A stretch of DNA of 46,227 nt, counting the filler, from Sphingomonadaceae bacterium (lineage in GTDB: Bacteria; Chloroflexota; UBA6077): NCBI GenBank assembly GCA_050261575.1. It is 3 parts of 3 records of this genome, joined end to end, with 100 filler letters (N's around TTAATTAATTAA, not from the genome) between each part and the next. Parts side by side here need not be neighbours in the genome. Positions count along the whole stretch, not along the records: positions 22,201 to 33,425 come from JBLNDL010000101.1; 2 more parts are not named here. One strand, given 5' to 3'. Made by a program: the position numbers and the translations under genes. Positions within the stretch are counted from its first letter, which is position 1; each line of letters opens with the position of its first letter. The notes below the pieces were generated by a model. The model was given only the letters and a program-made list of their open reading frames with translations. It was not told where the DNA came from and did not search any database. Positions 1 through 33,525 of the stretch are shown here, in pieces.

Positions 1-54
1 TCCACCTGCACCCCCGCACGAGATCGTGCGGGGGTGCAGGTGGAGCGGCGCTGC

Positions 55-63
55 TGCTATAAT
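55..63 (+). promoter_or_regulatory. Extended -10 promoter element upstream of acnA
   Basis: Perfect TGnTATAAT (tgctataat) about 190 nt before the acnA ATG. Confidence 0.55.
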
Positions 64-250
64 GTGATAGAAACCTTTAGTATCCCAGATGGCTTTTCAG
101 GGCCGGGGCGGGGACGCCGTCGGTGAGGGGATCGAAGGTCGCGCAGCGGACCTCTTCGGTTGCGCAGGAGGTCCGGTCCCCGCTATAGTGCACAGGAATG
201 ATCGATTTTACGTGCCCTTTCGTGGAACTATAAGGGAGGATAGGTAGGAA

Positions 251-2941
<2,691 letters not shown>

Positions 2942-2994
2942 CGAGCGGCCGGAGTGAGGGGGGCCCGCCGCGGGCTGCCCAACCAAGCCCCAAC

Positions 2995-3092
2995 GTGGGG
3001 GGCGGACCTGCGTGTCCGCCCCTTGTGCGCACGCAGCGTGACGCGAGCGTGACCGTGAGGCGAGGGCAGCCTCGCGGCCACGCTCGCCCCAC
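2995..3092. repeat. REP/REPIN-like palindromic element, copy A
   Basis: GGGGCGGACCTGCGTGTCCGCCC hairpin followed by CAGCGTGACGCGAGCGTG. Both segments recur at 29621-29737. Confidence 0.7.
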
Positions 3093-3152
3093 ATCGTCGC
3101 ATTCACGGAACGACGCGCCGAGGCCAGGTATCCGTGCGCGGATGCCTCGCCC

Positions 3153-4130
3153 CTACTTCTTTACCACCACGTCCTTGTTCACCAGCCCTACCGGCCGCTC
3201 GCCTCGCAAGATGGCGATCACGTTGTCGGCGGCCATCAGGCCCATGGCGCGCATGGCGTCCTCGGTCTGGCCCGCAGCGTGCGGCGCCAGGTAGACGTTA
3301 TCCAGGTTCCTCAGAGGGCTATCGGCTTCCAACGGCTCGTTGGCGAAGACGTCCAGGGCTGCACCCGCGATCCTCTTCTCCTTGCAGGCCTTCGCGAGCG
3401 CCTTCTCGTCCACTATTGGGCCGCGGGCCGTGTTGATCAGGTAGGCGGTGGGCTTCATCAGCGCCAGCCGCTCGGCGTTGATCAGGTGGCGGGTGGTGTC
3501 GTCCAGGAAGCAGTGGAGGGTGACGTAGTCGCTCTCGCGCAGGAGCTGCTCCAGGGAGACGTAGGTCACCTGGTGCTGGGCGGCGAAGGCCTCGTCCTTG
3601 TAGACGTCGTAGGCCAGAACCCGCATGTCGAACCCTCGGGCGCGCTTGGCCACCTCCTTGCCGATGGAGCCCAGGCCGACGATCCCGATGGTCGAGCCGG
3701 GGAGGTCCTTCCCCTGGTACCTCTTCCAGCCGCCCTTGGGGACCTCGGTGAGGTTCTCCAGCAGACGGCGGGCGCAGGCCAGGAGCAGCGTGAAGGCGAA
3801 GTCGGCCACGGCGCGGTTGTTGGCGCCGGGCGTGATGCAGACGGCGATGCCGTTCTCGGTGGCCGCCGGCACGTTGATCGCGTCGTAGCCCACGCCGGTC
3901 CGGGCGACGACCTTGAGCTGCTTGGCAGAGGAGAGCACCTTAGGGGTGAAGGGGTCGATGCTGACGACGGCGCCATCGATCCCCTGGAGGATGTCGATCA
4001 TCTCCTCCTCGGTTCGGCCGCCGTGCCAGCAGTTGAAGACGGTCTCCATGCCCGCCGACTGCAAGCGCTGATCCACCTCGTCTCCGGGTTTCAGCCAGAA
4101 AGATGTTAGAAGCACTCGGGGTTTAGCCAT
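3153..4130 (-). CDS. D-isomer-specific 2-hydroxyacid dehydrogenase (phosphoglycerate dehydrogenase family)
   Basis: RTGVGYD, GIVGLGSIG Rossmann motif, LINTARG, AALDVF-EP, PHAAG. No ACT domain. Confidence 0.92.
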   Translation of the reverse strand: MAKPRVLLTSFWLKPGDEVDQRLQSAGMETVFNCWHGGRTEEEMIDILQGIDGAVVSIDPFTPKVLSSAKQLKVVARTGVGYDAINVPAATENGIAVCITPGANNRAVADFAFTLLLACARRLLENLTEVPKGGWKRYQGKDLPGSTIGIVGLGSIGKEVAKRARGFDMRVLAYDVYKDEAFAAQHQVTYVSLEQLLRESDYVTLHCFLDDTTRHLINAERLALMKPTAYLINTARGPIVDEKALAKACKEKRIAGAALDVFANEPLEADSPLRNLDNVYLAPHAAGQTEDAMRAMGLMAADNVIAILRGERPVGLVNKDVVVKK

Positions 4131-22100: not shown

Positions 22101-22200
22101 NNNNNNNNNNNNNNNNNNNNNNNNNNNNNNNNNNNNNNNNNNNNTTAATTAATTAANNNNNNNNNNNNNNNNNNNNNNNNNNNNNNNNNNNNNNNNNNNN
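22101..22200. other. Artificial contig linker
   Basis: N run, TTAATTAATTAA (stops in all six frames), N run. Confidence 0.99.
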
Positions 22201-22275
22201 GGCGCGGCCGCCCCCCACGCGCCGCGGGGCGGGGGGGCGTGTGGGGTGGGTGGGGGCGCCCCCCCCCCCCCCCCC

Positions 22276-23061
22276 CACCCCCAGCAGCTCGTCTTTTATA
22301 CTCGTCACGAACATGTGACCTGGGGCGTGGGTAATCATCAACTCCGGCTTGCTCTGCATCGCCACCGCCTGCGGAGTCACCCCGCACGCCCAGAACACCG
22401 GAACCTCGTCCTCCTTGATGGTGACCGGATCGCCGAAGTCCGGTTTCGAGATATCCTTGATGCCGATCTGGGCCGGATCCCCAACGTGCACCGGCGCGCC
22501 GTGGACCGACGGGAATCGGCTGGTGACCTGCACCGCCCGAACCACCTGCTCGTGAGGGATTGGCCTCATCGAGACCACCATCGGGCCGTGGAACACGCCC
22601 GCGGGGACGCACTGGCGAGAGGTGATGTACATGGGCACCGTCACTTCCTCCTCGATGTGGCGCAGCGGGATGCCGTTGGCCGCCAGGGCCCGCTCGAAGC
22701 TGAAGGAGCATCCCAGCAGGAAGCCCACCAGATCGTCGCGCCAGTAGGAGAGGATGTCGGTGGTCTTGTCCGCCAGGCGCCCCTCCCGATACACGCGATA
22801 GCGAGGCACGTCGGTCCGCAGGTCGGCCTCGCGCCCCGCAAGCGGGGGATGGGGGTCGCCCGGCTCGGTCACGTCCAGCACCGGGCACGGTTTCGGATTC
22901 CGCTGACAGAACAGCAGGAAGTCGAATGCGTACTCCATTGGCAGGAACACCAAGTTCGCCTGCGCGTACCCCTGGCACACGCCGGCCGTGGTTCGCCGGA
23001 ACTCGCCTCGCCGGATAAGCTGCCACAACTCGCTGGGGCTCACGGCGGACAGATCTACCAT
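22276..23061 (-). CDS. Putative hydro-lyase, DUF1445/YcsI (D-glutamate cyclase family); 3' end lost in a low-complexity contig tip
   Basis: GYAQANLV, FCQRNPKPCP, DLRTDVPRY, GCSFSFE, MVVSMRP, HGAPVH, FWACGVTPQ, THAPGHM. Confidence 0.9.
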
Positions 23062-23198
23062 GGGGCCTCCTCCTTACGCAGTCCTTGCCGGCTCTGCACT
23101 ACGAAGTAACACGGTACTCGATGATACACCCTTTTGCCCCTCGGGAGATATCCACCGCGAGCCCCACTCTATGCCACGGGGCTCGCGGAACGGCCCGC

Positions 23199-26100
23199 TC
23201 AGCGCCGCCGAACCAGGTTGTAGGCCACCGGCACCACCACCAGCGTCAGGAGGGTGGAGGTGAACAGGCCGCCGATCACCACCGTGGCCAGTTCCGCGGC
23301 GATGATCGACCCCCTCTCCCACCCCAGCGCCAGCGGCATCAAGGCCAGGATCGTCGTCAGGGCGGTCATCAGGATCGGGCGCGCCCGCACACGTCCGGCC
23401 TCCACGAGCGCGTTGCGCGGATCCCTGCCGTCCCGCATCGTCCGGCGCGCGAAGTCCAGAAGCACGATCGCGTTGGTCACCACGATCCCTATCAGCATCA
23501 GCAGCCCTATCATTGCCGACATGCTGAGGGTTCGGCCGGTCACGTAGAGCAGGGGTATCGCCCCCACCGCCGCGAGCGGAAGCGAGAGCAGGATCACCAG
23601 CGGCTCCAGCAGCGAACCGAAGAAGAGCGCCATCACGAGGTACACCAGCGCCACCCCCACGAGCTGCCCCACCGCCATGGTGGAGAAGCCCTCGGACATC
23701 TGCTCCATCACCCCACCGTACTGCACCGATACCCCACTCGGCAGCCTCAACGACTCCAGCCGCTCCTTGACCTGGCGGGACACCGCGCCCGTGTCCGCAG
23801 CCACGATGTCGCCGGTGAGGTTGACCGCCGGGCTCTGGGCAACCCGTGTGATCTGGACGGGCCTAGTCTCCTGGCTGATTCGGGCGATATCGGAAAGGGG
23901 CGCCGACTTGGGAGTCCCGAACGGCAGCTTCCCCAGCTTCTCCGGGCTCTCCACCGCCTCCCGAGGAACCGAGAGCCGGATGTCCAGATCCACCCCGCCC
24001 TGCGTGATCTGTCCCACCGTCTGCCCGGCGATCATCCCGCGGATCTCCGTCGCCAGTTGGGCGGTGGTCAGACCCAGTTCGGCTGCCTTGCCGGGATCCA
24101 CCTGGATGGCGATCTCGGAGGCCGATCTGGTCCGATCGCCGGAGAGGTTCTCCAGCCCCTGGATCTCCCGTATCGCGCGCTCGGCCTCCTCGGCCACCCT
24201 CTCCACGACTTCCAAGTCCTGCCCGCTCACCGTGACCTGCATCCGCGCGGTCCCCGCCGACTGCTGGCCGGTGACGCTGATGCGGCTGTCTCCTTGGATG
24301 CTCGCCAGCGACTCCCTTAACTCGGCGGCGGTGGACTCCAGGTCCGCCCCGTCCTCCAGCCTCACCATGATGGTGGCCGTCCCCGCCCCCTGGCCAGCCA
24401 GGGCCGTCCGCAGGGAGGACAGCGCGCCGGTCTCGTCGCCCAGAGTCGTCTGGTGGAGGGCCACGCCGGCCGTCTCGCCGAGCACCCGCTCCACCTCCGC
24501 GGCCTTCAGGGAAACCGTCTCCCTGCTCGCTCCGGGCGCGGGCACCACCTGGATCATCAGCCGCTTCTCCTCGTCGGACGGCATGAAGGAGGTGGGTATC
24601 CTGGGAATGAGCGACAGGCTGGCTCCCAACAGGGCCGCCGCCAGCAGCAGCGTGGCGGCCCGATGGTCCAGCGCCGTCCGCAGCAGGCGGGTGTAGCTCC
24701 GCAGGGGCCAGGAGCCTTCCGGCCTGCGAGCCCCACCGTTGGCGGCCTCGGCCGTGGCCCCCGCTCCCGCCCGCGCCACCGGCTCGTCCCACACGTCCCG
24801 CATCCTCAGAGGGAGCTCCTCGCCCTCCTGGCCCTGCGGCGGGCGCAGGAAGAGCCGGCACAGCGCCGGCACCACGGTGAGCGCCACCAGCAACGAGGCC
24901 AGTAGGGCGAAGGTGACAGTCAGGGCAAACGGGCGGAACGCCTGTCCGATGATGCCCCCGATGAACCCGAGCGGCAGGAAGACCGCCACGGTGGTGGCGG
25001 TGGAGGCCGCGATCGGCATCGCCACCTCGGCCGTGGCGGCCCGCGCTGCCACCTCGGGGCGCTCTCCCCTCTGAACGTGCCGGTGGGCGTTCTCCAGCAC
25101 CACGATGCTGTCGTCTACCACCCGCCCCATCGCGACCGCCAGCCCGGCCAGGGTCATCACGTTGAGGCTGAACCCCTGCCAGTCCATGATCGCCAGCGCA
25201 AGGGCGATGGAGAGGGGAATCGATACCGCAGAGATCAGCGTGCCTCGCGGGCTCCAGAGGAAGGCGAAGATCACCAGCACGGCGAAGAGCATCCCAAGCA
25301 CGGCCTCGCGGGTCAGCCCGCGGAGAGAAGCCTCCACGTACCGCGACTCGTCCGCCACCACAGCTACCTCCACCTCTTCCCCCAACTGCCCCTTCAACTC
25401 CTCGAGCTTCTCGATCACCCCCACGGCCACCCGCACCGTGTTGGCCTCCTGGGTCTTGCTCACCATCACCAGCACACTGGGGCGGCCGTTCGTGCGGGAG
25501 ATGCCGCCCGAGGTGGAGGGCACCACGTCCACCGTGGCGATCTCCTTCAGCTTCACCGTAGGGACCTGCTGCGGCTGCGGGAGTGGCTCCAGGGAACGTT
25601 GCGCGCCGGCCGGCCGGCTGCCGCCCGAGGGCTGGGCGGGCGGCTGCGACGGCGAGGTCCGCGGCACTGGGACCACCAGCTTCTGGCCGGGGTAGATCCT
25701 GTCCGGGTCGGCGAGGCCGCTGGCCCGGGCGATCTCCTCCACCGTGGTGCCGTACCGGCGTGCCAGGTCGCTCACCGTGTCCCCCGATTGCACCACGTGC
25801 TGGCCGGGTTGGGAGGCGGGCTGGCTGGAAGTCGCGGGAGGCGGCCGAGATGGCGCCACCGGAGGGGCGCCGCCGGCCAGGCCGGAGGGTGCTGCGCCGC
25901 GATCCGCCCCCACCACCATCTCCTCCACCTCCGCCACATCGCGGAACTGGTGCAGGGTGCGCACGGGGATCGTCTGGCCGCCCACCTCCACGCTGCCTCC
26001 CGGCAGGGCGAGGCTATTGGCCTGGAGGAGGCTGGCCACCTGCTGGAGAGAGATCCCCTTCTGCGCCGCCTTCTCCGGGTCCAGCACCACGCTCACCTGC

Positions 26101-26639
26101 TGCTCCTCCCCACCCAGGAGGTCGACCGAGTACACCCCCTCCACCCGGCTCAGCTCGGGCACCAACTTCTCGGAGGCGATCCGCCTCAGATCCGAGAGGG
26201 GGAGCCGGCCTGAGAGGCTGATCTGCACCACCGGCAGGTCATTGAGGTTGACTCTGGCGGTCTTCGGCGGCTGGGCGTTCTGGGGCAGCGATACCCCGGA
26301 GATGGCCGACTGGATGTCCGCCTCGGCCTCCTTGGTGTCCCGACCGAACTCGAACTCGGCGACGACGACCGACAGCCCCTCGGCGGAAGTGGATTGCAGC
26401 CGTTTCAGCCCCGGCACGCCGCTCACCGCCTGCTCCACCGGCTCGGTGACCTGGTCCACCACGTCCTGTGGAGAGGCGCCCGGATAGGCGACTATGGTGG
26501 TGACGATGGGGAAGTTGAGGTCCGGCATCATCTCCACCTTCAGCCGCGTCGCTGCCAGGCCTCCCCCCACCAGCACCGCCGTGGCCAGCAGCAGGGTGGC
26601 CATCACCCTCCGGAGCGCCAGATCAGTTAGGCGAGTGAT
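23199..26639 (-). CDS. RND (AcrB/SwrC-like) efflux permease with an inserted LysM domain
   Basis: VVDDSIVVLEN, VTNAIVLLD, RARPILMT, VIGGLFTSTLLTL. LysM at 25668-25799. Start placed at ATC 26639 (SD GAGGGAGG); the first canonical start is GTG 26606. Confidence 0.92.
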   Translation of the reverse strand: MTRLTDLALRRVMATLLLATAVLVGGGLAATRLKVEMMPDLNFPIVTTIVAYPGASPQDVVDQVTEPVEQAVSGVPGLKRLQSTSAEGLSVVVAEFEFGRDTKEAEADIQSAISGVSLPQNAQPPKTARVNLNDLPVVQISLSGRLPLSDLRRIASEKLVPELSRVEGVYSVDLLGGEEQQVSVVLDPEKAAQKGISLQQVASLLQANSLALPGGSVEVGGQTIPVRTLHQFRDVAEVEEMVVGADRGAAPSGLAGGAPPVAPSRPPPATSSQPASQPGQHVVQSGDTVSDLARRYGTTVEEIARASGLADPDRIYPGQKLVVPVPRTSPSQPPAQPSGGSRPAGAQRSLEPLPQPQQVPTVKLKEIATVDVVPSTSGGISRTNGRPSVLVMVSKTQEANTVRVAVGVIEKLEELKGQLGEEVEVAVVADESRYVEASLRGLTREAVLGMLFAVLVIFAFLWSPRGTLISAVSIPLSIALALAIMDWQGFSLNVMTLAGLAVAMGRVVDDSIVVLENAHRHVQRGERPEVAARAATAEVAMPIAASTATTVAVFLPLGFIGGIIGQAFRPFALTVTFALLASLLVALTVVPALCRLFLRPPQGQEGEELPLRMRDVWDEPVARAGAGATAEAANGGARRPEGSWPLRSYTRLLRTALDHRAATLLLAAALLGASLSLIPRIPTSFMPSDEEKRLMIQVVPAPGASRETVSLKAAEVERVLGETAGVALHQTTLGDETGALSSLRTALAGQGAGTATIMVRLEDGADLESTAAELRESLASIQGDSRISVTGQQSAGTARMQVTVSGQDLEVVERVAEEAERAIREIQGLENLSGDRTRSASEIAIQVDPGKAAELGLTTAQLATEIRGMIAGQTVGQITQGGVDLDIRLSVPREAVESPEKLGKLPFGTPKSAPLSDIARISQETRPVQITRVAQSPAVNLTGDIVAADTGAVSRQVKERLESLRLPSGVSVQYGGVMEQMSEGFSTMAVGQLVGVALVYLVMALFFGSLLEPLVILLSLPLAAVGAIPLLYVTGRTLSMSAMIGLLMLIGIVVTNAIVLLDFARRTMRDGRDPRNALVEAGRVRARPILMTALTTILALMPLALGWERGSIIAAELATVVIGGLFTSTLLTLVVVPVAYNLVRRR

Positions 26640-26765
26640 GCTCGGGCCTCCCTCGAAATGTCACAGGAAATGCCTCAGGAGGGCAAACCTTGTACCATTC
26701 CGATGGACCGATTCCTGCAGAGTCTGCTGGGATATCCCAATGGTCAAATGCGGAGGCCCGCTTCC

Positions 26766-27155
26766 TTGGCAAAAAAGGTGCTGATAGTCGAGGACGAACC
26801 TGACATCCAAGAAGTAGAGAGAATGGTGGTGGAGGATCTGCTGGGCTGCGAGGTTGCCCTCGCCTCCACTGGCGAGGAAGCACTGGAGAAGGTGGCCGAG
26901 ATCTCTCCCGACCTGGTGGTGCTCGATCTGCTGCTGCCGGGCATCGACGGCTTCACCGTTGCATCGCAGATGCGCGCGGAGCCGAGGTTCGACGGCACCC
27001 CCATCCTCGCGCTGAGCGGCCTGACCCGGACCGAGGACAAGGAGAAGGCCAAGGCCGCCGGCTGCAGCGACGTACTGGATAAGCCCTTCGACCTGGACGC
27101 CCTGATGGAGAAGGTCGAGAAGCTCGTGGGCTCCTGCCGCGCTCCGTCCCCATGA
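26766..27155 (+). CDS. Single-domain response regulator (CheY/DivK-like)
   Basis: VLIVEDE, DLVVLDLLLPGIDG, ILALS, KPFD. TTG start follows CGGAGG. Confidence 0.9.
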   Translation: MAKKVLIVEDEPDIQEVERMVVEDLLGCEVALASTGEEALEKVAEISPDLVVLDLLLPGIDGFTVASQMRAEPRFDGTPILALSGLTRTEDKEKAKAAGCSDVLDKPFDLDALMEKVEKLVGSCRAPSP

Positions 27156-27170
27156 ACGGGTTCACCCCAA

Positions 27171-27199
27171 TTGAGCGTGCGGCCAACCGATGCTATAAT
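27171..27199 (+). promoter_or_regulatory. Promoter of rsfS
   Basis: TTGAGC, 17-nt spacer, TATAAT with an extended TG. Confidence 0.75.
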
Positions 27200-27240
27200 C
27201 CGCTTCCGGGCATCGAACGAGGAAGAGGAGGATCGGCCGA

Positions 27241-27588
27241 CTGGAACCCCAAGCGCTGGCGAGAAGGATCGTCGATATCGCCTCTGATAAGCAGGCTGTC
27301 GACGTGGTCATGCTCGATCTCCGAGACGTATCCCTCATCGCGGACTACTTCGTCATCTGCAGCGGCACCAGCGAGCGGCAAATCAAGGCCATCACGGACG
27401 ACATCGTGGAGACCCTGGCGCGAGAAGAGCGGGTGAAGCCGCTGCAGACGGAGGGGCGTCCAGACTCAGGCTGGGTGCTGCTGGACTACGGCAGCGTTGT
27501 AGTACACGTCTTCTCCCCCGAGGCTCGCGACTTCTACCGGCTGGAGAAGATCTGGTCACAGGCAGTGCCGGTACTCCGCATCGCGTAG
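27241..27588 (+). CDS. rsfS: Ribosome silencing factor
   Basis: (L)EPQALARRIVDIASDKQAVDV, ADYFVICSG, WVLLDYG, VHVF, FYRLEKIW. Probable CTG start follows AGGAGG. Confidence 0.93.
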   Translation: MEPQALARRIVDIASDKQAVDVVMLDLRDVSLIADYFVICSGTSERQIKAITDDIVETLAREERVKPLQTEGRPDSGWVLLDYGSVVVHVFSPEARDFYRLEKIWSQAVPVLRIA

Positions 27589-27618
27589 CGGCTGAAAGCT
27601 GCAAAGGAGCATCACCCC

Positions 27619-27801
27619 GTGAACAATAGGCGGAGCCCGCTATTCGGCGCCGGACTGGGCATCGGCATCGCCCTCGGATTCCTCCTCGGGTCGGTCCTGG
27701 CAGCCCGGGCGAGCGGCGACCCCACTCTGATCGTCAGATCCATCCTGGACAGGCTGATGCACAGGGAAGAAGGCGTGCGGTTCGAGGTGCTCCTCCAGTA
27801 G
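27619..27801 (+). CDS. Small single-TM protein (60 aa)
   Basis: SD AAAGGAG. Gly-rich TM helix GAGLGIGIALGFLLGS. Co-directional with rsfS. Confidence 0.65.
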   Translation: MNNRRSPLFGAGLGIGIALGFLLGSVLAARASGDPTLIVRSILDRLMHREEGVRFEVLLQ

Positions 27802-27840
27802 CGGTGGGCGCACCGCACACGCCCACCGCCCGCGGAAGCC

Positions 27841-28290
27841 CTACTCCGAGATCCACCTGTCGACGTCTCGGCTCCACCTCACCAGTTCCTCTTCCTTGAA
27901 CCAGAGGGCCACCTCGGCCTCGGCGTTTTCCGCCGAATCCGAGGCGTGGACCAGGTTCCGGCCGATCTCCATGGCCAGATCGGCCCTTATGCTCCCCGGC
28001 GAGGCCTGCACCGGGTTGGTGGCCCCCACCGTGGCCCGCACCGCCGCCACGGCGTCTTTCCCTTCGAAGACCGCCACCACCACCGGCGAGGCCGTGATGT
28101 AGTCGATCAGGGGGCCGAAGAACGGCTTGCCAGCGTGGACGGCGTAGTGGCGCCGGGCCAGCTCCTGGCTAACCGCCATCAGTTTCAGCCCCACCATCTT
28201 GAGCCCGCGGGCCTCGAACCTCTTCAACACCTCGCCAACCAGGCCCCGCTGCACACCGTCGGGTTTGACGATCACCAGAGTACGTTCCAT
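27841..28290 (-). CDS. ndk: Nucleoside diphosphate kinase
   Basis: ERTLVIVKPDGVQRGL, GATNP, PGSIR, NLVHASDS. Confidence 0.97.
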   Translation of the reverse strand: MERTLVIVKPDGVQRGLVGEVLKRFEARGLKMVGLKLMAVSQELARRHYAVHAGKPFFGPLIDYITASPVVVAVFEGKDAVAAVRATVGATNPVQASPGSIRADLAMEIGRNLVHASDSAENAEAEVALWFKEEELVRWSRDVDRWISE

Positions 28291-28347
28291 CTTTCTCCTT
28301 CAATGCCAGTTATCGGGACCGAGTGCTGGATGCTGGGCACTCGGTCC

Positions 28348-29454
28348 TCAGTCCTCAGCCCTCTGTCCTTCACCTTTCAGGGCGGCCAGGTAATGCTCGA
28401 CGGCTCGCCTCAACTGCCCTGCACGGACGAGCACGTCCCCGGCCTGCCACTGGGCGAGCCGCCCTTGCAGGTCGGCGCCCTCCGAGGCCGCGGGACTCCC
28501 CCTGCCCCTCACCCACTCACCCTCCAGTTGGTCTTCCGGGAGACCGAAGAGTTCGGGCTCCTCCGCTTCATCCTCCCAGTAGTCCCCGTCCTCGCCCTCG
28601 TCCTCCTCGTCCTCCGGCGAAGGCTCCACGTTCGCCCCCGCCACCCCGATCGTCTCCGCAGGACCCAGCCGGCCGATCGCTTCCCACAGCTCCCTCTCGG
28701 GGATCTCCGGCTCCTCTCCGACCCTGGGAAAGGGCAACCCTGCCTGCAGGAAGAGCCGACGAGCTACCGTGTTGCCCGATTCCAATTCTGCGGTCTTGCG
28801 CAGGATGTCGAGGCACCGAGCCTCACCTCGCACGAAGGCTGCGCCCGCCACGATCGCCAGAGCCTTGAGGCAGTCGGGGTGGGCCACCAAGACCTTCTCC
28901 GCCACCTCCGCGGCCTCCTCCAACCGACCCGAGAGCCACAGCGCCTGAGCCAACCCCACGGCGATCTCCGCCGCTGCCGGACGGCCTCGCAACGCGTCCT
29001 CGAAGAAGGGGATGGACCGCCGGTACTGCTTCCTTCGCAGCAAGCGCCGCGCGATGGCGTGCTGCGAGAGCGCCGCGTCGGCCGGCCGGGTGTGGCTCAG
29101 CCGGGCGTGGAGCTGGCTGATCTCCTCGGCCACCTGCCGGTTCGAGCTGTCCAGGGCGAACACCCTCTCGAAATCGTCGAGGGCCTGGTCCAGGTCGCCG
29201 TCTTCCTCCTCCATGAGGGCAAGCCCGGAGCGGGCCAGGCGGCTCTCCGGATCGACCTCGAGCAGCTCCGCGAAACACTCCCGGGCCTCCAGGCGGCGGC
29301 CGCACGCCAGGTGGATCTGCCCCAGCAATCCCGTGGTCCGCACGTCGTGGGGGGAGTGCCGCCGGATCAGCTCGGCCAACTCCAGCGCCAGGGGATACTC
29401 GCCCGCGGCCGCGGCTGCCTTCGCCCGATCGCGTACGCTCTTGAGAGTGGCCAT
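28348..29454 (-). CDS. Tetratricopeptide-repeat protein with an acidic linker
   Basis: Repeated TPR-like helices (LGQIHL..G...EA...F...LE.DP) and a D/E-rich stretch. Confidence 0.75.
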   Translation of the reverse strand: MATLKSVRDRAKAAAAAGEYPLALELAELIRRHSPHDVRTTGLLGQIHLACGRRLEARECFAELLEVDPESRLARSGLALMEEEDGDLDQALDDFERVFALDSSNRQVAEEISQLHARLSHTRPADAALSQHAIARRLLRRKQYRRSIPFFEDALRGRPAAAEIAVGLAQALWLSGRLEEAAEVAEKVLVAHPDCLKALAIVAGAAFVRGEARCLDILRKTAELESGNTVARRLFLQAGLPFPRVGEEPEIPERELWEAIGRLGPAETIGVAGANVEPSPEDEEDEGEDGDYWEDEAEEPELFGLPEDQLEGEWVRGRGSPAASEGADLQGRLAQWQAGDVLVRAGQLRRAVEHYLAALKGEGQRAED

Positions 29455-29519
29455 CTTCGGCAAGCTCCGGTTCCGGAGATGGTGGGTCGCGCACCATTAT
29501 AACGGGTGCTGCACATCGC

Positions 29520-29737
29520 CGCGCAGCGCGCACAGGGACCGCGGGCGGCTGCAGGATCCGCTCGCAGTGAGATACTGCCTGCTCTCTGTGCGCGCAGCGC
29601 GCACAGGGACCGCGGGCGGCTGCAGGGGCGGACCTGCGTGTCCGCCCAGCCGGGCGCAGGCGACGGGGGCGCGCACAGCGTGACGCGAGCGTGCCCGCGA
29701 GGCTGTGCTCGCTCGCCTCGCGGGCACGGCCCCTACC
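29520..29737. repeat. 36-bp direct repeat (two copies) plus REP/REPIN-like element, copy B
   Basis: CGCGCAGCGCGCACAGGGACCGCGGGCGGCTGCAGG at 29520 and 29591, then GGGGCGGACCTGCGTGTCCGCCC ... GCCCCTAC. Confidence 0.75.
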
Positions 29738-29875
29738 GATGGGACGGTGATGGCAATACCGCATCACGCGCTTATTGCCCTGCGGCCACCTGAGCTGGAG
29801 CGTGGCGACGAGAAGTCGCTGCCCCGCGGAGACACCCCCCCGAAAAACGCGCGTTATGATAGCATAGTGGCCGCT

Positions 29876-30544
29876 ATGGCAGGCCTGAAACCGCACTACG
29901 ACGAGGCGTACTACCGCAGCCGCGAAGGGTGGCCCGACTTCCGCCGGGAGGCCGAATCGCTGCTGGAGCTTGCGAGACTCTCCCCCGATGCCCGAGTGCT
30001 GGAGCTGGGCTGCGGAGGTGGAGAGCTCCTCGCCCGCCTGGAAAGGCGCGCCCGCCTCGCCGTGGGGGTCGACCTCTCCCCCGAGGGACTGCGCCTCGCC
30101 CGACTGGGCGGGCGGGCGTCGGTGCTGGGCGCGAGGGTGGAGTCGCTGCCCTTCCGGGCCGGAAGCTTCGACGCGATCGTGGCCCAGCACCTGATCGAGC
30201 ACCTGCACTACCCGCTGGAGGCGATGAGAGAGTGGCATCGGGTGCTTCGCCCAGGGGGAGTCCTGGCGCTGGTCACCCCCAACGCCGCCCATCCCGACCC
30301 CAGCCTGTTCTACGACCCCACCCACGTCAGCCTGTTCACCCGGGCTTCGCTGCGATCCGCGCTGGAGGCCGCGGGCTTCCGGGCAACCCACCTCTACACC
30401 CTGTTCCCGTACCTGGGCAGGGGCCGCCTGGCGCGCGCCGCCAGCATCCGCCTAGCCCCCCTTGCCCTCCACCTGCCGGCGCTGCGGGGCAGCGGGCGAT
30501 CGCTGGTGGCGGCGGCGGTGAAGGAACCCCAGCCCTCCCCCTGA
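29876..30544 (+). CDS. Class I SAM-dependent methyltransferase
   Basis: VLELGCGGG, GVDLS, LPF..GSFD, HLIEHL, RVLRPGG, TPN, DPTH. Start is uncertain: GTG 29867 could be leaderless after TATGAT. Confidence 0.88.
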   Translation: MAGLKPHYDEAYYRSREGWPDFRREAESLLELARLSPDARVLELGCGGGELLARLERRARLAVGVDLSPEGLRLARLGGRASVLGARVESLPFRAGSFDAIVAQHLIEHLHYPLEAMREWHRVLRPGGVLALVTPNAAHPDPSLFYDPTHVSLFTRASLRSALEAAGFRATHLYTLFPYLGRGRLARAASIRLAPLALHLPALRGSGRSLVAAAVKEPQPSP

Positions 30545-30565
30545 CCCTCTCCCTCTGGGAGAGGG
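30533..30565. repeat. CCCTC..ACCCTCTCCC-N-GGGAGAGGG palindromic element
   Basis: Hairpin CCCTCTCCC-TCT-GGGAGAGGG between convergent genes. Confidence 0.55.
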
Positions 30566-30602
30566 AATCCCCGACTCCCCCGTCCCCCCATCCCCGCGCC
30601 CC

Positions 30603-31910
30603 TCACCCCCCGATCCCCCACGCGCTCGCCACCGAGACCACCACCAGGGCCACGGAGAACACCGACACGACGATCACGGTGATCCAGCCGAGAAGCGCGT
30701 ACACCGGCCCGTTGGCGTAGCTGCCCAGAACCTCCCGACTGCCGGCAAGCCGGACTACGGAGAACAGGATGATGGGAAGCAGGATCCCGTTCACCACCTG
30801 GGCCAGGATCAGCAGCGGGATGAGCGGAAGACCCGGTATCAGAGTGACGGCCACCCCCAGGACGATCAGCCCGGTGAAGATCCCCATGAAGGCCGGAGCC
30901 TCCCGGAAGGTGCGAGACACCCCTCTCTCCAGCCCCAGCGCCTCGCTGATGGGGTAGGCGGTAGCCAGGGGCAGCACACCCGCGGCCAGAAGCGACGCCC
31001 CCAGCAGGCCGACGGCGAAGATCACCCCCGCGAGCGGTCCCGCCAGGGGGGTCAATGCCTGGGCCGCGTCCGCCGCCGTCTCGACCGTGATCCCTTGCGG
31101 ATGGAGGGTGGCGGCCGCGGTGACGATGATGAAGAAGGCGAGTGTGTTGGAGAAGAGGACCCCCAGGTAGGCGTCTGCCCGCTCCCAGCCGTAGTGTTCC
31201 AGATCCACCCCCTTCTCCACCGTCGCCGATTGGACGAAGATCTGCATGTAGGGGGTGATGGTGGTGCCCAGCATGGCCATCAGGGTGAAGAGATAACCAG
31301 GCTCCAGATGGAAGGAGGGCGAGAGGATGTGCCGGCCAACCTCGCTCCAGTCGGGAGCGACCAGGAAGACGGTGATGGGATAGGCGAGAAGGACCAGGGT
31401 CATGAGAAGGAAGACCTTCTCCACGCGGTGGTAGGAGCCCCACACCACCAGCACCCAGATGGATATGCCTGCCAGGGGAACGGAGATGTACTTGCTCACC
31501 CCCAGCAACTCCATGGAGGCAGCCACACCGGCGAACTCCGACACCACCGTAGCGCCGTTCGCCACCAGCAGCGTCAAGATGGAGACCGCAGTCCAGCGGA
31601 TGCCGAAGTGCTCGCGGATCAGATCGGCCAGCCCCTGCCCAGTCACCGCCCCCAGGCGGGTGGACATCTCCTGCACGAGCGAGAGGCTCACCGTCATGAG
31701 GGCCAGGGCCCACAGGAGTTGGTAGCCGTAGGAGGCGCCGACGGAGGCGTAGGTAGCCACCCCACCGGCATCGACTCCAGCGATGGCAGCGATCAGCCCG
31801 GGCCCCATGAGCCCCAGGTAGAACAGCAGTTGTCGGAGCCTGTCGGCTCTCGGACGGGGCGGAGTCTCCCCCGCTATCTGGACTGGCTCCTCTTCCGCTG
31901 GTACTCTCAT
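30603..31910 (-). CDS. NRAMP-related divalent metal transporter (NRMT-like, probably Mg2+/Mn2+)
   Basis: MGPGLI, DAGG in place of DPGN, QEMSTRLG.VTG.GL, GTTITPY in place of GATIMPH. Confidence 0.88.
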   Translation of the reverse strand: MRVPAEEEPVQIAGETPPRPRADRLRQLLFYLGLMGPGLIAAIAGVDAGGVATYASVGASYGYQLLWALALMTVSLSLVQEMSTRLGAVTGQGLADLIREHFGIRWTAVSILTLLVANGATVVSEFAGVAASMELLGVSKYISVPLAGISIWVLVVWGSYHRVEKVFLLMTLVLLAYPITVFLVAPDWSEVGRHILSPSFHLEPGYLFTLMAMLGTTITPYMQIFVQSATVEKGVDLEHYGWERADAYLGVLFSNTLAFFIIVTAAATLHPQGITVETAADAAQALTPLAGPLAGVIFAVGLLGASLLAAGVLPLATAYPISEALGLERGVSRTFREAPAFMGIFTGLIVLGVAVTLIPGLPLIPLLILAQVVNGILLPIILFSVVRLAGSREVLGSYANGPVYALLGWITVIVVSVFSVALVVVSVASAWGIGG

Positions 31911-33151
31911 CCGAGCAGCCGCGGTAGCCGACGCCTCCAGCGTTCGGGCAGCATCTCCTCCACGACGTCGTCCGCGGCAACGATGCCGAGTACCCTGCCC
32001 TCGTCATCCACCACCGGCATGACAGGCAGGTCGTACTCTGCCATCTTCCGAGCCACCTCGGAGGTGCCGGTATCCGGTCCCACGGTGGGCACGTCCCGCG
32101 CCATGAAGCGGCTCAGCCGATCCCCTGGATCCGCCACCACCACGTCCAGCAGCGACACCATGCCGACCAGCCGGTCGCTCCCTGGCCGCTCCAGCACGAG
32201 CAGGTGGGTGACGGTCTCCGGCCGGTCCTCCATCCGCCGCAGCAGCCCCAGGGTCTGGGAGACCGTCCAGTTCTGCGGGGCAGCCACGAAGCGGCTGGTC
32301 ATGAGCCCACCCGCAGTGCCCTCGCGGTACTCCATCAGGGCCTGGACGTCCCTGGCCTCCTCGTCTTCCATCCGGTGGAGCAGGTCGCCAGCGTCCTCCG
32401 GGTCGAGCTTGGCGAGCAGATCGGCCGCGTCGTCCGGCTCCATCTCCTCCAGGATGTCCGCGGCCCGCTCCTCGTCCAGGTTCCGCAGGACTCCCGCCTG
32501 GTGCTCCTCGGACAGCTCGCTGATCACCTCCGCGGCGTCCTCGTCCTCCAGCGATTCCACGATGTCTGCCCCCTGGCGCGTGGGCAGCTCGTCCACGATG
32601 TGGGCCACCTCCACGGGATGCAGCCGGGCCAGCAGAGGGAACGTCGCCTTCACCTCGGGCGCCGCCTCGGAGGGCAGCCACTCCACGTCCGCCCAGTCCA
32701 CCAGGTCGGTCCCGCCGAAGGCCGAGGCGAGCCACCGAGGCGCCAGCCGGCGCAGGAGGGCCGCGAACCCCACATCCACGGCCGCCACCGCGAGGCGCTC
32801 CTGGATCCACTCCAGCACCACGTCGTTGACGCGGATCACTTTTCGGCGCCGAACGTCGATCATGCGGTGATCCATGAGGTCCCCGGCGAGCAGTATCTCC
32901 TGCGGCCGGCGGCCGAAAGGCTGGAAGTTCACCTGGTAGGAGGAGAGCCTCACACCTGCTCGATCCAGCTCGACCACCTGCTGCCAGGGAACGAAGAACG
33001 GACGCCTGCCCACCCGGGCCACCAGCCCCCCGACCACCAGCCGGTGGTCGCGCCGCCAGCGGCCCACCAGGTCGCTCAGAGCGGCGATCCTCTCGCCACC
33101 CGCGTCCCTGACGGGTGTGCCCAGAAGCTGTGACAGCAGAAGCATCGCCAT
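31907..33151 (-). CDS. MgtE-type cytosolic protein (PRC-barrel, MgtE N-domain, CBS pair) without TM domain
   Basis: LHPVEVA, MEPDDAADLL, TAGGLMT, PVVD..G.VLGIV..DD. ATGA overlap with the NRAMP gene. Start is 33151 or 33145. Confidence 0.88.
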   Translation of the reverse strand: MAMLLLSQLLGTPVRDAGGERIAALSDLVGRWRRDHRLVVGGLVARVGRRPFFVPWQQVVELDRAGVRLSSYQVNFQPFGRRPQEILLAGDLMDHRMIDVRRRKVIRVNDVVLEWIQERLAVAAVDVGFAALLRRLAPRWLASAFGGTDLVDWADVEWLPSEAAPEVKATFPLLARLHPVEVAHIVDELPTRQGADIVESLEDEDAAEVISELSEEHQAGVLRNLDEERAADILEEMEPDDAADLLAKLDPEDAGDLLHRMEDEEARDVQALMEYREGTAGGLMTSRFVAAPQNWTVSQTLGLLRRMEDRPETVTHLLVLERPGSDRLVGMVSLLDVVVADPGDRLSRFMARDVPTVGPDTGTSEVARKMAEYDLPVMPVVDDEGRVLGIVAADDVVEEMLPERWRRRLPRLLG

Positions 33152-33425
33152 TCTCCTCCCAGCGGGGGGCGCCACGATCCCCCGGTGTCGAGCGGGCTCT
33201 GCAAGGTCCAGCCCCGCCTTGCACCAGAAACGCCCCTGCAAGATCGGCGCTTTCGGCAGAATCCAGGCCGATGAGCACCTTTCCTCACACAACGTGCCAG
33301 ATGAACCATCGGAGGCAGACCGTTGCCAGACTTGACATCCACCCCCCTCGTGGATAACCACCGCCGGCCATCGAGCCCGGCAAGGCCACACTCGATCCGG
33401 AATCGCTGTCGCGCGGGTTCTTCGA

Positions 33426-33525
33426 NNNNNNNNNNNNNNNNNNNNNNNNNNNNNNNNNNNNNNNNNNNNTTAATTAATTAANNNNNNNNNNNNNNNNNNN
33501 NNNNNNNNNNNNNNNNNNNNNNNNN
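33426..33525. other. Artificial contig linker
   Basis: N run, TTAATTAATTAA, N run. Confidence 0.99.

Follow-up and report, generated by a model that had tools for sequence, protein, structure and literature searches.

In AcrB, protons are relayed through an Asp pair in TM4 (D407/D408), K940 in TM10 and R971 in TM11, and in current cryo-EM models AcrB and TolC are bridged through AcrA. Other envelope machines carry peptidoglycan-binding modules, such as the OmpA/MotB-like domains of flagellar stators and the LysM of FimV; the LysM fold binds GlcNAc polymers generally, among them peptidoglycan and chitin oligomers. RND permeases also occur in single-membrane bacteria, among them SwrC/YerP of B. 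subtilis, yet how an AcrB-type permease works without an outer membrane, and what purpose its docking domain then serves, is largely unexplored. In the excerpted account of C. difficile CD630_24070, an AcrB-like 12-helix permease of a one-membrane bacterium, whether such pumps have partner proteins is posed as an open question (PMC11170357). MmpL3/HAE-2 transporters are RND-type proteins that work without an OMF, and their extracytoplasmic modules are decorated by insertions at few recurrent points, which the excerpts of a review place at the β2-β3 hairpin tip and a smaller second site of the porter module (PMC8277102). The DN subdomain of AcrB-type pumps features a short vertical hairpin that protrudes upward, with its tip at the funnel rim (excerpts of PMC4403515).

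Here we describe an RND pump with a genuine LysM domain carried on flexible tethers at the top of its headpiece. The window, i.e. the whole stretch of DNA analyzed (46,227 nucleotides, filler included), comprises three contigs joined by N spacers. The pump gene lies on contig C101 (11.2 kb; window 22201-33425) of a Chloroflexota metagenome-assembled genome (103 contigs, 3.72 Mb, estimated 100% complete, 4.76% contamination), and translation of its minus strand yields one uninterrupted frame (Table 1). FtsH-like, glycosyltransferase and epimerase genes at 13-21 kb were rejected as neighbors of the pump, being on another contig.

Table 1. Features of the pump gene and its surroundings (window positions)
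Feature	Position	Strand	Details
RND (HAE-1-like) permease gene with LysM insert	23199-26606	minus	single open frame, 1135 aa; GTG at 26606, stop codon 23199-23201
N-terminal RND part, residues 1-232	25911-26606	minus	TM1, PN1, PN2, DN up to rising strand of short hairpin; aligned to MdtB 21-261
Linker 1, residues 233-269, 37 aa	25800-25910	minus	Pro/Ala/Gly/Ser-rich, 86% P/A/S/G/Q/T; predicted disordered, pLDDT <50 for 245-265
LysM domain, residues 270-313	25668-25799	minus	PF01476 E 2.7e-16; peptide HVVQSGDT...GQKLVVP
Linker 2, residues 314-349, 36 aa	25560-25667	minus	Pro/Gln/Ser-rich, 78% P/A/S/G/Q/T; predicted disordered, pLDDT <50 for 317-339
C-terminal RND part, residues 350-1135	23202-25559	minus	descending DN hairpin strand, TM2-TM12, PC1, PC2, DC; aligned to MdtB 262-1022
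TM4 Asp-Asp D498/D499, proton-relay pair	25110-25115	minus	invariant in 85 aligned homologs
TM10 Thr1044-Asn1045	23472-23477	minus	at 'saKna' lysine position of aligned solved chains
Probable true start	26637-26654	minus	ATC at 26639-26637; GAGGGAGG (26654-26647) upstream, 7 nt between
Receiver-only response regulator	26658-27155	plus	REC at residues 41-154 of frame; divergent from pump; Response_reg E 3.2e-25
D-glutamate cyclase family protein gene	22201-23061	minus	downstream, same strand; PF07286 E 1.7e-70; frame runs into contig end

The protein matches Pfam ACR_tran (PF00873; E 7.6e-212, 706 bits against a cut-off of 28) in two stretches broken by the insert at about profile position 250, the second spanning residues 348-1132 and profile 250-1020. 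Its AF2 monomer model (pLDDT 88.4, pTM 0.81), compared by Foldseek, has the twelve-helix RND fold with two large extracytoplasmic loops forming the porter and docking subdomains; the top match was CusA (TM 0.87, target-normalized), with AcrB and AcrD chains at 0.81-0.87 and E values down to 8.5e-64. The pump resembles AcrB, MexB, MdtB and CusA (HAE-1) in fold, in subdomain order and in possessing both the long and the short vertical hairpin of DN, while identity to solved RND chains is only 21-23%. The named NCBIfam RND subfamilies and equivalogs (RND_permease_1/2, CusA/CzcA, MdtB, MdtC, AcrB, AcrD, OqxB) all score below their curated cut-offs, the best being RND_permease_2 at 631.6 bits against 1250. 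Scores to MmpL models are weak (Pfam MMPL 38.6 bits; NCBIfam MMPL below cut-off). In the modeled DN subdomain, the long hairpin (strands 200-208/211-218) is followed by a helix (224-228) and a strand (231-234). RND homotrimers assemble through the DN long hairpin, and with this element in the model (200-218) the pump would be expected to form a trimer.

The TM4 Asp pair and the TM11 Arg and Thr of AcrB-type permeases are kept in the pump, and R1074, R1076 and T1081 are invariant among homologs. An earlier reading of the locus, made from the sequence alone, had described the proton-relay Asp pair as intact. This holds for D498/D499, but the TM10 lysine of the relay is replaced by Thr1044: HMMER alignment to two solved RND chains sets 'vvtna' of the query against 'saKna' and 'aaKna', with the lysine at the spot of AcrB K940. 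Within the clade T1044 is nearly invariant and N1045 invariant. Because of this substitution the relay appears only partly classical, and even the transport mechanism may differ from that of AcrB.

The insert, a loop of 117 residues, stands where the DN short vertical hairpin would otherwise end in a turn of about 6-8 residues (around AcrB 257/258); relatives with a turn of 8 residues occur. By alignment, query residues 238 and 350 correspond to MdtB 261 and 262, and residues 257/258 of AcrB-type chains to query 348/349; in the AF2 model, strand 231-234 leads into the loop and strand 350-352 out of it, both of them following the long hairpin and the helix at 224-228. The modeled short hairpin agrees with the description of this element in the excerpts of PMC4403515. 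It is a different site from the hot spots named in the excerpts of PMC8277102, being an extra short hairpin after DN helix α2 with a LysM as the inserted module. The LysM match reaches 59.7 bits against a Pfam cut-off of 20.9 and covers profile positions 1-43 of 43; in the model the domain forms a β-α-α-β block (strand 269-271, helices 278-285 and 289-296, strand 309-311) at a pLDDT of 92-93. The sequence-only reading had placed a LysM at this position, in frame between VEEMVVG and TVKLKEIATV, and both translation and the Pfam match, well above cut-off, agree; the span it gave, 25560-25910, is exactly residues 233-349, on a minus strand it left unstated. Its phrase 'TolC-docking position' is borne out by alignment and model as far as it denotes the tip of the DN short vertical hairpin, whereas the label itself goes back to older naming of this subdomain. 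Outside the RND family, the insert is best matched by multi-LysM MltD-like proteins, and the nearest LysM elsewhere in the genome is 52% identical. The LysM sequence type is common to the pump and MltD-type lytic transglycosylases, but theirs are terminal repeats on soluble or lipid-anchored enzymes, whereas here a single LysM sits inside a loop of a polytopic transporter. Our literature search found no paper describing an RND-LysM architecture, in keeping with the earlier statement that the architecture is not known to have been described, and the literature searched reports no peptidoglycan-binding module on an RND pump. The excerpts on CD630_24070 and pumps of its kind likewise mention no wall-binding module, the comparison here being one of published descriptions (PMC11170357).

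The same LysM-tip architecture was found in ten other proteins or loci; it is seen in the seven other members of the main clade, in P0012, and in the loci of G056, G077 and L026. Across the eight main-clade members, whose branches reach 62% overall identity, the LysM keeps a constant length of 44 aa and a mean pairwise identity of 66%, compared with 68% in the remaining protein, whereas linker 1 averages 19% identity (17-82 aa) and linker 2 22% (31-41 aa). These data suggest that the LysM core, unlike the linkers, is under purifying selection. New here are another LysM form at the same tip in P0012, G077 and L026, 49 aa long and sharing no more than 43% identity with the 44-aa form; one relative, P0111, with a LysM in a different loop; and the wider variability of the tip. 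In 99 of the 120 closest homologs the tip holds at least 20 residues between conserved flanks (median 40, maximum 160, about 79% P/A/S/G/T/Q), and most clade members carry such low-complexity inserts only, without LysM. The tip is a hot spot for low-complexity inserts across the stand-alone RND clade, with LysM a special case. A single clade for both LysM forms gave p 0.083 in the AU test, and the host tree fits one or two gains at the tip. RND paralogs of the same genome (on C91, C90 and C64) have short tips. The architecture is rare and patchy, occurring in three of the 401 sampled Chloroflexota genomes, and a search of three further genomes from the family did not find it, so it is dispensable. 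A class-level search of 61 genomes at a strict E of 1e-150 recovered G000 and G056 only, and a whole-protein search of a collection of genome contigs gave four distant RND loci (26-29% identity) and no LysM relatives. Protein representatives searched with residues 205-395 were mostly multi-LysM repeat proteins, P0008 being the only RND-LysM protein among the 150 matches listed, a listing that is no measure of how common the architecture is. The searches that gave the main clade and the non-RND matches to the insert were seeded by words of this protein, and occurrence of the architecture outside Chloroflexota is beyond their reach.

A 103-contig metagenome-assembled source and a window that is itself a concatenate could raise the suspicion that a LysM gene fragment was joined into the RND gene by a chimeric assembly or a sequencing artefact. 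This is extremely improbable and was rejected, given an independent contig and relatives sharing the architecture. The separately assembled 6407-letter contig (from run X1, possibly the source sample) spans 25000-26700 uninterrupted, with four differing letters and no gaps or joints, and shows the DNA to be continuous over the insert, a check of the kind that the sequence-only reading had called for. Three further studies contribute pieces with matches inside the insert. Coverage by runs X5-X7 is in short pieces only; of these, just the 453-letter piece of X5 crosses an insert boundary (25910) with over 31 letters to either side. The sequencing runs listed included no RNA run. The architecture moreover recurs in the same frame in the seven other main-clade members, in P0012 and in the other three loci.

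The genomic context is that of a pump without outer-membrane partners. Neither OEP (TolC-type) nor Omp85 (BamA-type) had any match in the 3.72-Mb genome, while control searches for each were positive in 7 of 14 named genomes; the genome has 7 transpeptidase matches (penicillin-binding proteins) and 16 LysM matches. The monoderm setting assumed by the first reading is supported at the estimated completeness, and the host envelope is best read, from gene content, as single-membrane. That reading had also reported no MFP or OMF gene adjacent to the pump. By Pfam scan, no HlyD-type MFP or OEP/OMF ORF occurs on C101, which is how far the claim reaches, since the window is three joined contigs. Nor was an MFP or OMF found on the contigs of the G056 and G077 LysM loci, or a HlyD-type or OEP ORF within 4.5 kb in any of 27 metagenome loci of relatives. 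These Pfam scans replaced an MFP profile of our own making, derived from four frames in this genome, which matched one of 2807 ORFs (L029) and was judged too insensitive. HlyD_D23 frames do occur elsewhere in the genome beside other RND genes, e.g. on C91, where one directly follows an RND fragment. With no adjacent MFP gene on C101 and no OMF in the genome, the system falls outside the tripartite HAE-1 (AcrAB-TolC) type.

On balance, and with moderate confidence, we read the protein as a stand-alone, proton-driven RND exporter whose LysM loop is a putative anchor to the wall, replacing MFP and OMF partners. The tip of the DN (funnel/docking) short hairpin is the highest point of the extracytoplasmic headpiece, and it is here that the loop replaces the turn. 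If the pump is a trimer, as expected, its exit funnel would be encircled by three LysM modules, each on tethers with a possible reach of about 10 nm (our own arithmetic, at about 0.3 nm per residue), beside a headpiece of roughly 7 nm. We infer that these modules would bind peptidoglycan glycan strands above the pump and so tether it to the wall; the sequence-only reading had proposed either tethering or sensing. The wall would then serve as distal anchor in place of the membrane-fusion and outer-membrane partners, fixing the location of the pump and holding its outlet beneath the wall, possibly at sites that leave glycan strands accessible. The pump probably exports small toxic molecules, by analogy with relatives that have TetR or MarR genes beside them. 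Flagellar stators and FimV offer a parallel, with a wall-binding domain dedicated to holding a membrane machine in place; the machine differs, as mostly does the domain family.

The LysM could alternatively be a cargo or acceptor site, the pump exporting a GlcNAc-containing lipid, glycolipid or polysaccharide precursor that the LysM captures or hands over, or it could bind a wall polymer other than peptidoglycan. The general affinity of LysM for GlcNAc polymers, chitin oligomers included, means that the putative ligand could indeed be something else, and in L026 the genes upstream of the LysM pump include a sugar transferase and a GT2 glycosyltransferase, as a D-glutamate cyclase gene follows the pump of the window. 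Wall lipids are exported by RND relatives from other bacteria with a single membrane or a mycolate wall, MmpL3 among them (excerpts of PMC8277102). These glycosyltransferase and cyclase neighbors are, however, not conserved among the four LysM loci examined (the cyclase gene is missing beside the G056 and G077 pump genes), and TetR- or MarR-type regulators, typical of toxic-compound efflux, adjoin the RND gene in 5 of 27 relatives' loci. With the LysM also on long, floppy tethers away from the predicted transport path, we consider a cargo or acceptor role unlikely.

Because most clade members carry low-complexity inserts without LysM, the loop may have a role of its own, and the functional unit might be a wall-spanning spacer, brush or glycosylated stalk on which LysM is a tolerated passenger. 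The prevalence of long, mostly P/A/S/G/T/Q tips among the closest homologs is consistent with this, as is P0013, sister of the LysM clade, with a 45-aa tip segment lacking LysM. A passenger would be expected to decay as the linkers do, but the LysM core is fixed in length and as conserved as the pump core, and the tip has taken up the other LysM form in a different lineage; we think a passenger LysM improbable. We give little credence to the insert as a regulatory plug or sensor, in which three LysM domains in or over the exit funnel would free it on contact with wall fragments, coupling pump activity to the state of the wall. The tip does lie at the funnel rim in the excerpts of PMC4403515, and in two of the four LysM loci, here and in G056 (L017:3420-3869), the pump gene has a receiver-only response regulator as its divergent neighbor. 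Yet the pairing is absent from G077 and L026, no sensor kinase lies near the pump gene on C101, and no LysM-funnel contact is predicted, since the linkers are modeled as disordered; the model is of a monomer, with LysM placement relative to the funnel beyond its scope.

More tentatively, the wall-anchor reading might extend beyond this pump: in single-membrane Chloroflexota, and in some Firmicutes, what used to be the docking hairpin of stand-alone RND pumps has possibly become a general socket for wall-interacting modules, with the wall as functional third component. Such modules would comprise Pro/Ala-rich stalks in most pumps, LysM domains, with two or more gains at the tip and one in a different loop, and, in other pumps, long coiled-coil-like repeats; the LysM versions would sit at accessible or nascent peptidoglycan. 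Recurrent LysM gain suggests selection to fix such pumps to the wall, and a wall-binding domain at the docking spot provides a testable answer to what that domain does without an outer membrane. The natural tolerance of the hairpin tip for insertions is also useful for tagging and engineering RND pumps.

The pump gene probably starts at the upstream ATC of Table 1. The protein would then gain 11 residues, ITRLTDLALRR, in agreement with the family N-terminus (homolog consensus MxRLTxxAxxxR). An Ile occupies the position of the putative start also in P0004, P0009 and P0010, and the ATC codon recurs in L017.

The pump is an RND permease whose docking hairpin carries an inserted, putatively wall-binding module. 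Its gene is a single open frame, counted from the first canonical start codon, whose match to ACR_tran (Pfam, E 7.6e-212) is split in two stretches. Residues 270-313 match LysM (PF01476, E 2.7e-16) over all 43 profile positions, with 59.7 bits where the cut-off is 20.9. The sequence-only reading had proposed a LysM domain here; the full-profile match bears this out, and the insert coordinates proposed, with the strand unstated, are identical to the joint span of linker 1, LysM and linker 2.

Features of the pump gene and its surroundings (positions along the window)
Feature	Position	Strand	Details
Pump gene	23199-26606	minus	1135 aa
Linker 1	25800-25910	minus	37 aa; P/A/S/G/Q/T 86%
LysM	25668-25799	minus	44 aa
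Linker 2	25560-25667	minus	36 aa; P/A/S/G/Q/T 78%
Probable pump start	26637-26654	minus	ATC at 26639-26637, 7 nt after GAGGGAGG
Residues 594-633	24708-24827	minus	cytoplasmic side, after TM6
Residues 1044-1045	23472-23477	minus	TM10
RsfS	27304-27588	plus	between response regulator and NDK
Block syntenic with L017:1-3869	26658-30544
Spacers	22101-22200; 33426-33525		each 44 N + 12 bases + 44 N

In HMMER alignments to solved structures, residues 2-238 of the query correspond to MdtB 21-261 and residues 350-1132 to MdtB 262-1022, and residues 257/258 of AcrB-type chains align with query residues 348/349. About 111 query residues are thus left unmatched. The AlphaFold2 model, which draws on 85 homologues (pLDDT 88.4, pTM 0.81), resembles CusA (TM 0.87, target-normalised) and AcrB chains (0.81-0.87), and orders the region as DN long hairpin (200-208 and 211-218), helix 224-228, strand 231-234, insert and strand 350-352. 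LysM is modelled as strand 269-271, helices 278-285 and 289-296, and strand 309-311, a block with pLDDT of 92-93; insert residues 245-265 and 317-339 fall below 50. In the model, the turn of the DN short hairpin is replaced by the LysM insert, and the earlier placement at the docking hairpin was right.

The window joins contigs C97 (1-22100), C101 (22201-33425) and C103 (33526-46227) with N spacers, and genes on opposite sides of a spacer are not known neighbours; the pump gene lies well within C101. The pump stretch was found in seven public sequencing runs from four studies. One of these, X1, is possibly the source sample; in it, a 6407-letter contig from a separate assembly spans 25000-26700 in one piece, differs at four letters and is free of gaps and joints, providing the continuity over the insert that the sequence-only reading had wanted confirmed. 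Short pieces from three other studies (runs X5, X6 and X7) match within the insert, one 453-letter piece (25858-26310) bridges the insert boundary at 25910, and the same in-frame architecture is present in relatives from other assemblies. The X1 contig, the pieces from other studies and these relatives rule out an assembly chimera for practical purposes.

Of 8000 homologue candidates scored, 2858 proteins had E ≤0.001, and the best 120 were kept; Pfam LysM is annotated in 10 of these best 120 of 2858. Tip length was measured as the residues between flanks V232 and T350 (query numbering) in an alignment of the query and 119 non-identical hits; the shortest tip has 8 residues and the longest 160 (median 40). 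Because 99 of the 120 aligned rows carry at least 20 residues here, and such stretches are ~79% P/A/S/G/T/Q, the hairpin tip reads as a place where low-complexity inserts generally gather in the pump's Chloroflexota RND clade, a hot spot previously unremarked in stand-alone RND pumps. Trees were built without insert columns, with FastTree (121 rows) and IQ-TREE (35 rows chosen from those). The 44-aa LysM form occupies eight rows (the window's protein and P0004-P0010) in a single clade with support of 100; a 49-aa form occurs in P0012, the Chloroflexota genome G077 (L018) and metagenome locus L026. On both trees, P0012 and G077 group together, apart from the 44-aa clade and again with support of 100, L026 being outside the tree sampling. 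The two forms share a mean identity of 37% and a maximum of 43%, and the closest other LysM within the window's genome is 52% identical to that of the pump. A tree uniting both host clades is not rejected (AU test p 0.083); two gains of LysM at the tip are likely, though a single gain would also fit the host tree. The headpiece of a related RND protein from a metagenome, P0111, has received LysM independently, in another extracytoplasmic loop. Its LysM (residues 707-750) comes after query residue 771, a site that the model places in PC1 between helix 756-768 and strand 775-780; the flanking linkers are Pro/Glu-rich and Ala/Glu-rich, and the DN tip of this protein is short. Other tips carry Gly/Gln/Leu/Ala-rich repeats of 160-250 aa (P0092, and metagenome loci L066:5653-9324, L082:1454-3613 and L088:4709-7750) that have no Pfam match and look like coiled coils. 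P0092 bears the name Peptococcaceae. In the P0085-P0120 group (15 rows of the 121-row tree), an acidic Ala-rich insert ends in a conserved motif, ~GGL..L.DLS.LTEALA..P.PVTLG, suggestive of a small, conserved helix immediately ahead of the descending strand of the hairpin.

The architecture is rare. Residues 205-395 were used for a word-seeded search among 5.8 billion proteins, which, being seeded on the window's protein, may miss other phyla; it found 27 proteins: seven RND proteins with LysM (all of the 44-aa clade), one RND protein without, and 19 non-RND LysM proteins. A Pfam-confirmed LysM at the DN tip was present in three of 401 sampled Chloroflexota genomes (the window's genome, G056 and G077), and was not found in the same-family genomes G227, G406 and G415 (completeness 97, 85 and 64%). 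Two such proteins are already in NCBI, labelled merely 'efflux RND transporter permease subunit', and searches of openly accessible full-text papers gave, among the papers listed, no description of the architecture.

The window's genome (3.72 Mb, 103 contigs) has an estimated completeness of 100% and contamination of 4.76%. Family searches, controlled in 14 named genomes, gave no match to OEP (TolC family) or Omp85 (BamA family), each control being positive in 7/14, and seven to Transpeptidase (10/14); these results therefore support an envelope with a peptidoglycan wall and no classical outer membrane. LysM had 16 matches (control 10/14) and HlyD_D23 nine (9/14). The gene order on C101 is D-Glu cyclase (-), pump (-), divergent receiver-only response regulator (+), RsfS, NDK (-), TPR protein (-), methyltransferase (+), Nramp (-) and MgtE-N/CBS protein (-), with no membrane-fusion protein (MFP) or outer-membrane factor (OMF) gene, as the sequence-only reading had noted of the immediate surroundings. 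On contig C91, an RND fragment (3-1817) lies six bases ahead of a frame of 671 codons with HlyD_D23 (1823-3835). This RND and MFP-like pair (3-3835) exists despite the lack of OEP and Omp85 matches. Thus RND genes beside MFP-like genes exist in this genome, and the LysM pump is not among them. RND paralogues on C91, C90 and C64, where the tip region is visible, have short tips. The methyltransferase, TPR, NDK, receiver-only regulator and pump genes are syntenic with contig L017 of G056, a genome that belongs to the same family but to another genus; the divergent regulator is absent at the G077 and L026 loci.

What might the insert do? The short DN hairpin lies at the top rim of the headpiece, which in AcrB-type trimers stands ~70 Å (~7 nm) above the membrane, according to PMC4403515. 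A trimer would display three loops, each holding a single LysM at its apex between two ~36-residue linkers and having, at ~0.3 nm per residue, a further reach of ~10 nm. Because this reach would suffice for the glycan strands of the wall above the pump, we lean modestly towards a putative three-point wall tether, which would stand in for the missing MFP/OMF scaffold by holding pump and outlet beneath the peptidoglycan. Alternatively, the tip may carry a generic spacer loop with LysM merely a passenger. Among the eight members of the 44-aa clade, LysM is always 44 aa with a mean pairwise identity of 66%, compared with 68% for the remainder of the protein, 19% for linker 1 (17-82 aa) and 22% for linker 2 (31-41 aa); judged from this alignment, LysM is maintained by selection and the linkers are kept only long and flexible. 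A LysM in this position could also offer a cargo or acceptor site for a GlcNAc-bearing product, or act as a plug or sensor. The anatomy of the sequence-only reading is supported, and the function it predicted, that of a pump tethered to or sensing the wall, is plausible.

That reading had also called the proton-relay DD intact. D498/D499, like R1074, R1076 and T1081, are indeed invariant across 85 homologues. The relay nevertheless departs in part from the classical one: where two solved chains have a TM10 lysine ('saKna', 'aaKna'), the aligned residue is Thr1044. We take this lysine position to be AcrB K940. Thr1044 is nearly invariant among the 85 homologues and clade-wide, and protons may take another path in this clade than in AcrB.

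Of 79 metagenome loci of relatives, 27 were kept, those where the tip could be measured and the flanks extended at least 3 kb one way and 1.5 kb the other; nine were dropped for doubtful ORF choice. Of 158 flanking ORFs (≥230 aa, ≤4.5 kb away, overlapped ORFs pruned), 147 were scanned and 11 longer than 760 aa omitted: 78 at E 1e-10, then the other 69 together with 19 matchless ORFs from the first batch at 1e-4. No HlyD-type or OEP match was found among the 147 ORFs at the 27 loci, where for first-batch ORFs with another match only hits beyond E 1e-10 would be visible. TetR/MarR regulators directly adjoin the pump gene at 5/27 loci (L038, L061, L064, L065 and L090), which fits efflux of toxic small molecules by these relatives.

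The probable ATC start would add 11 residues that agree with the family N-terminus. The nearest proteins, P0004 (82% identity) and P0010, carry the NCBI name 'Chloroflexota bacterium', and the N-terminal sequence of P0010 agrees with the open-frame start on L017. The residue aligned with the start is Ile in P0004, P0009 and P0010, and L017 likewise has ATC there; a non-canonical start, if conserved, would hint at control of translation. Residues 594-633 form a second clade-variable stretch without an MdtB counterpart, modelled at low confidence (pLDDT ~50; <50 at 594-601, 611-614 and 619-627).
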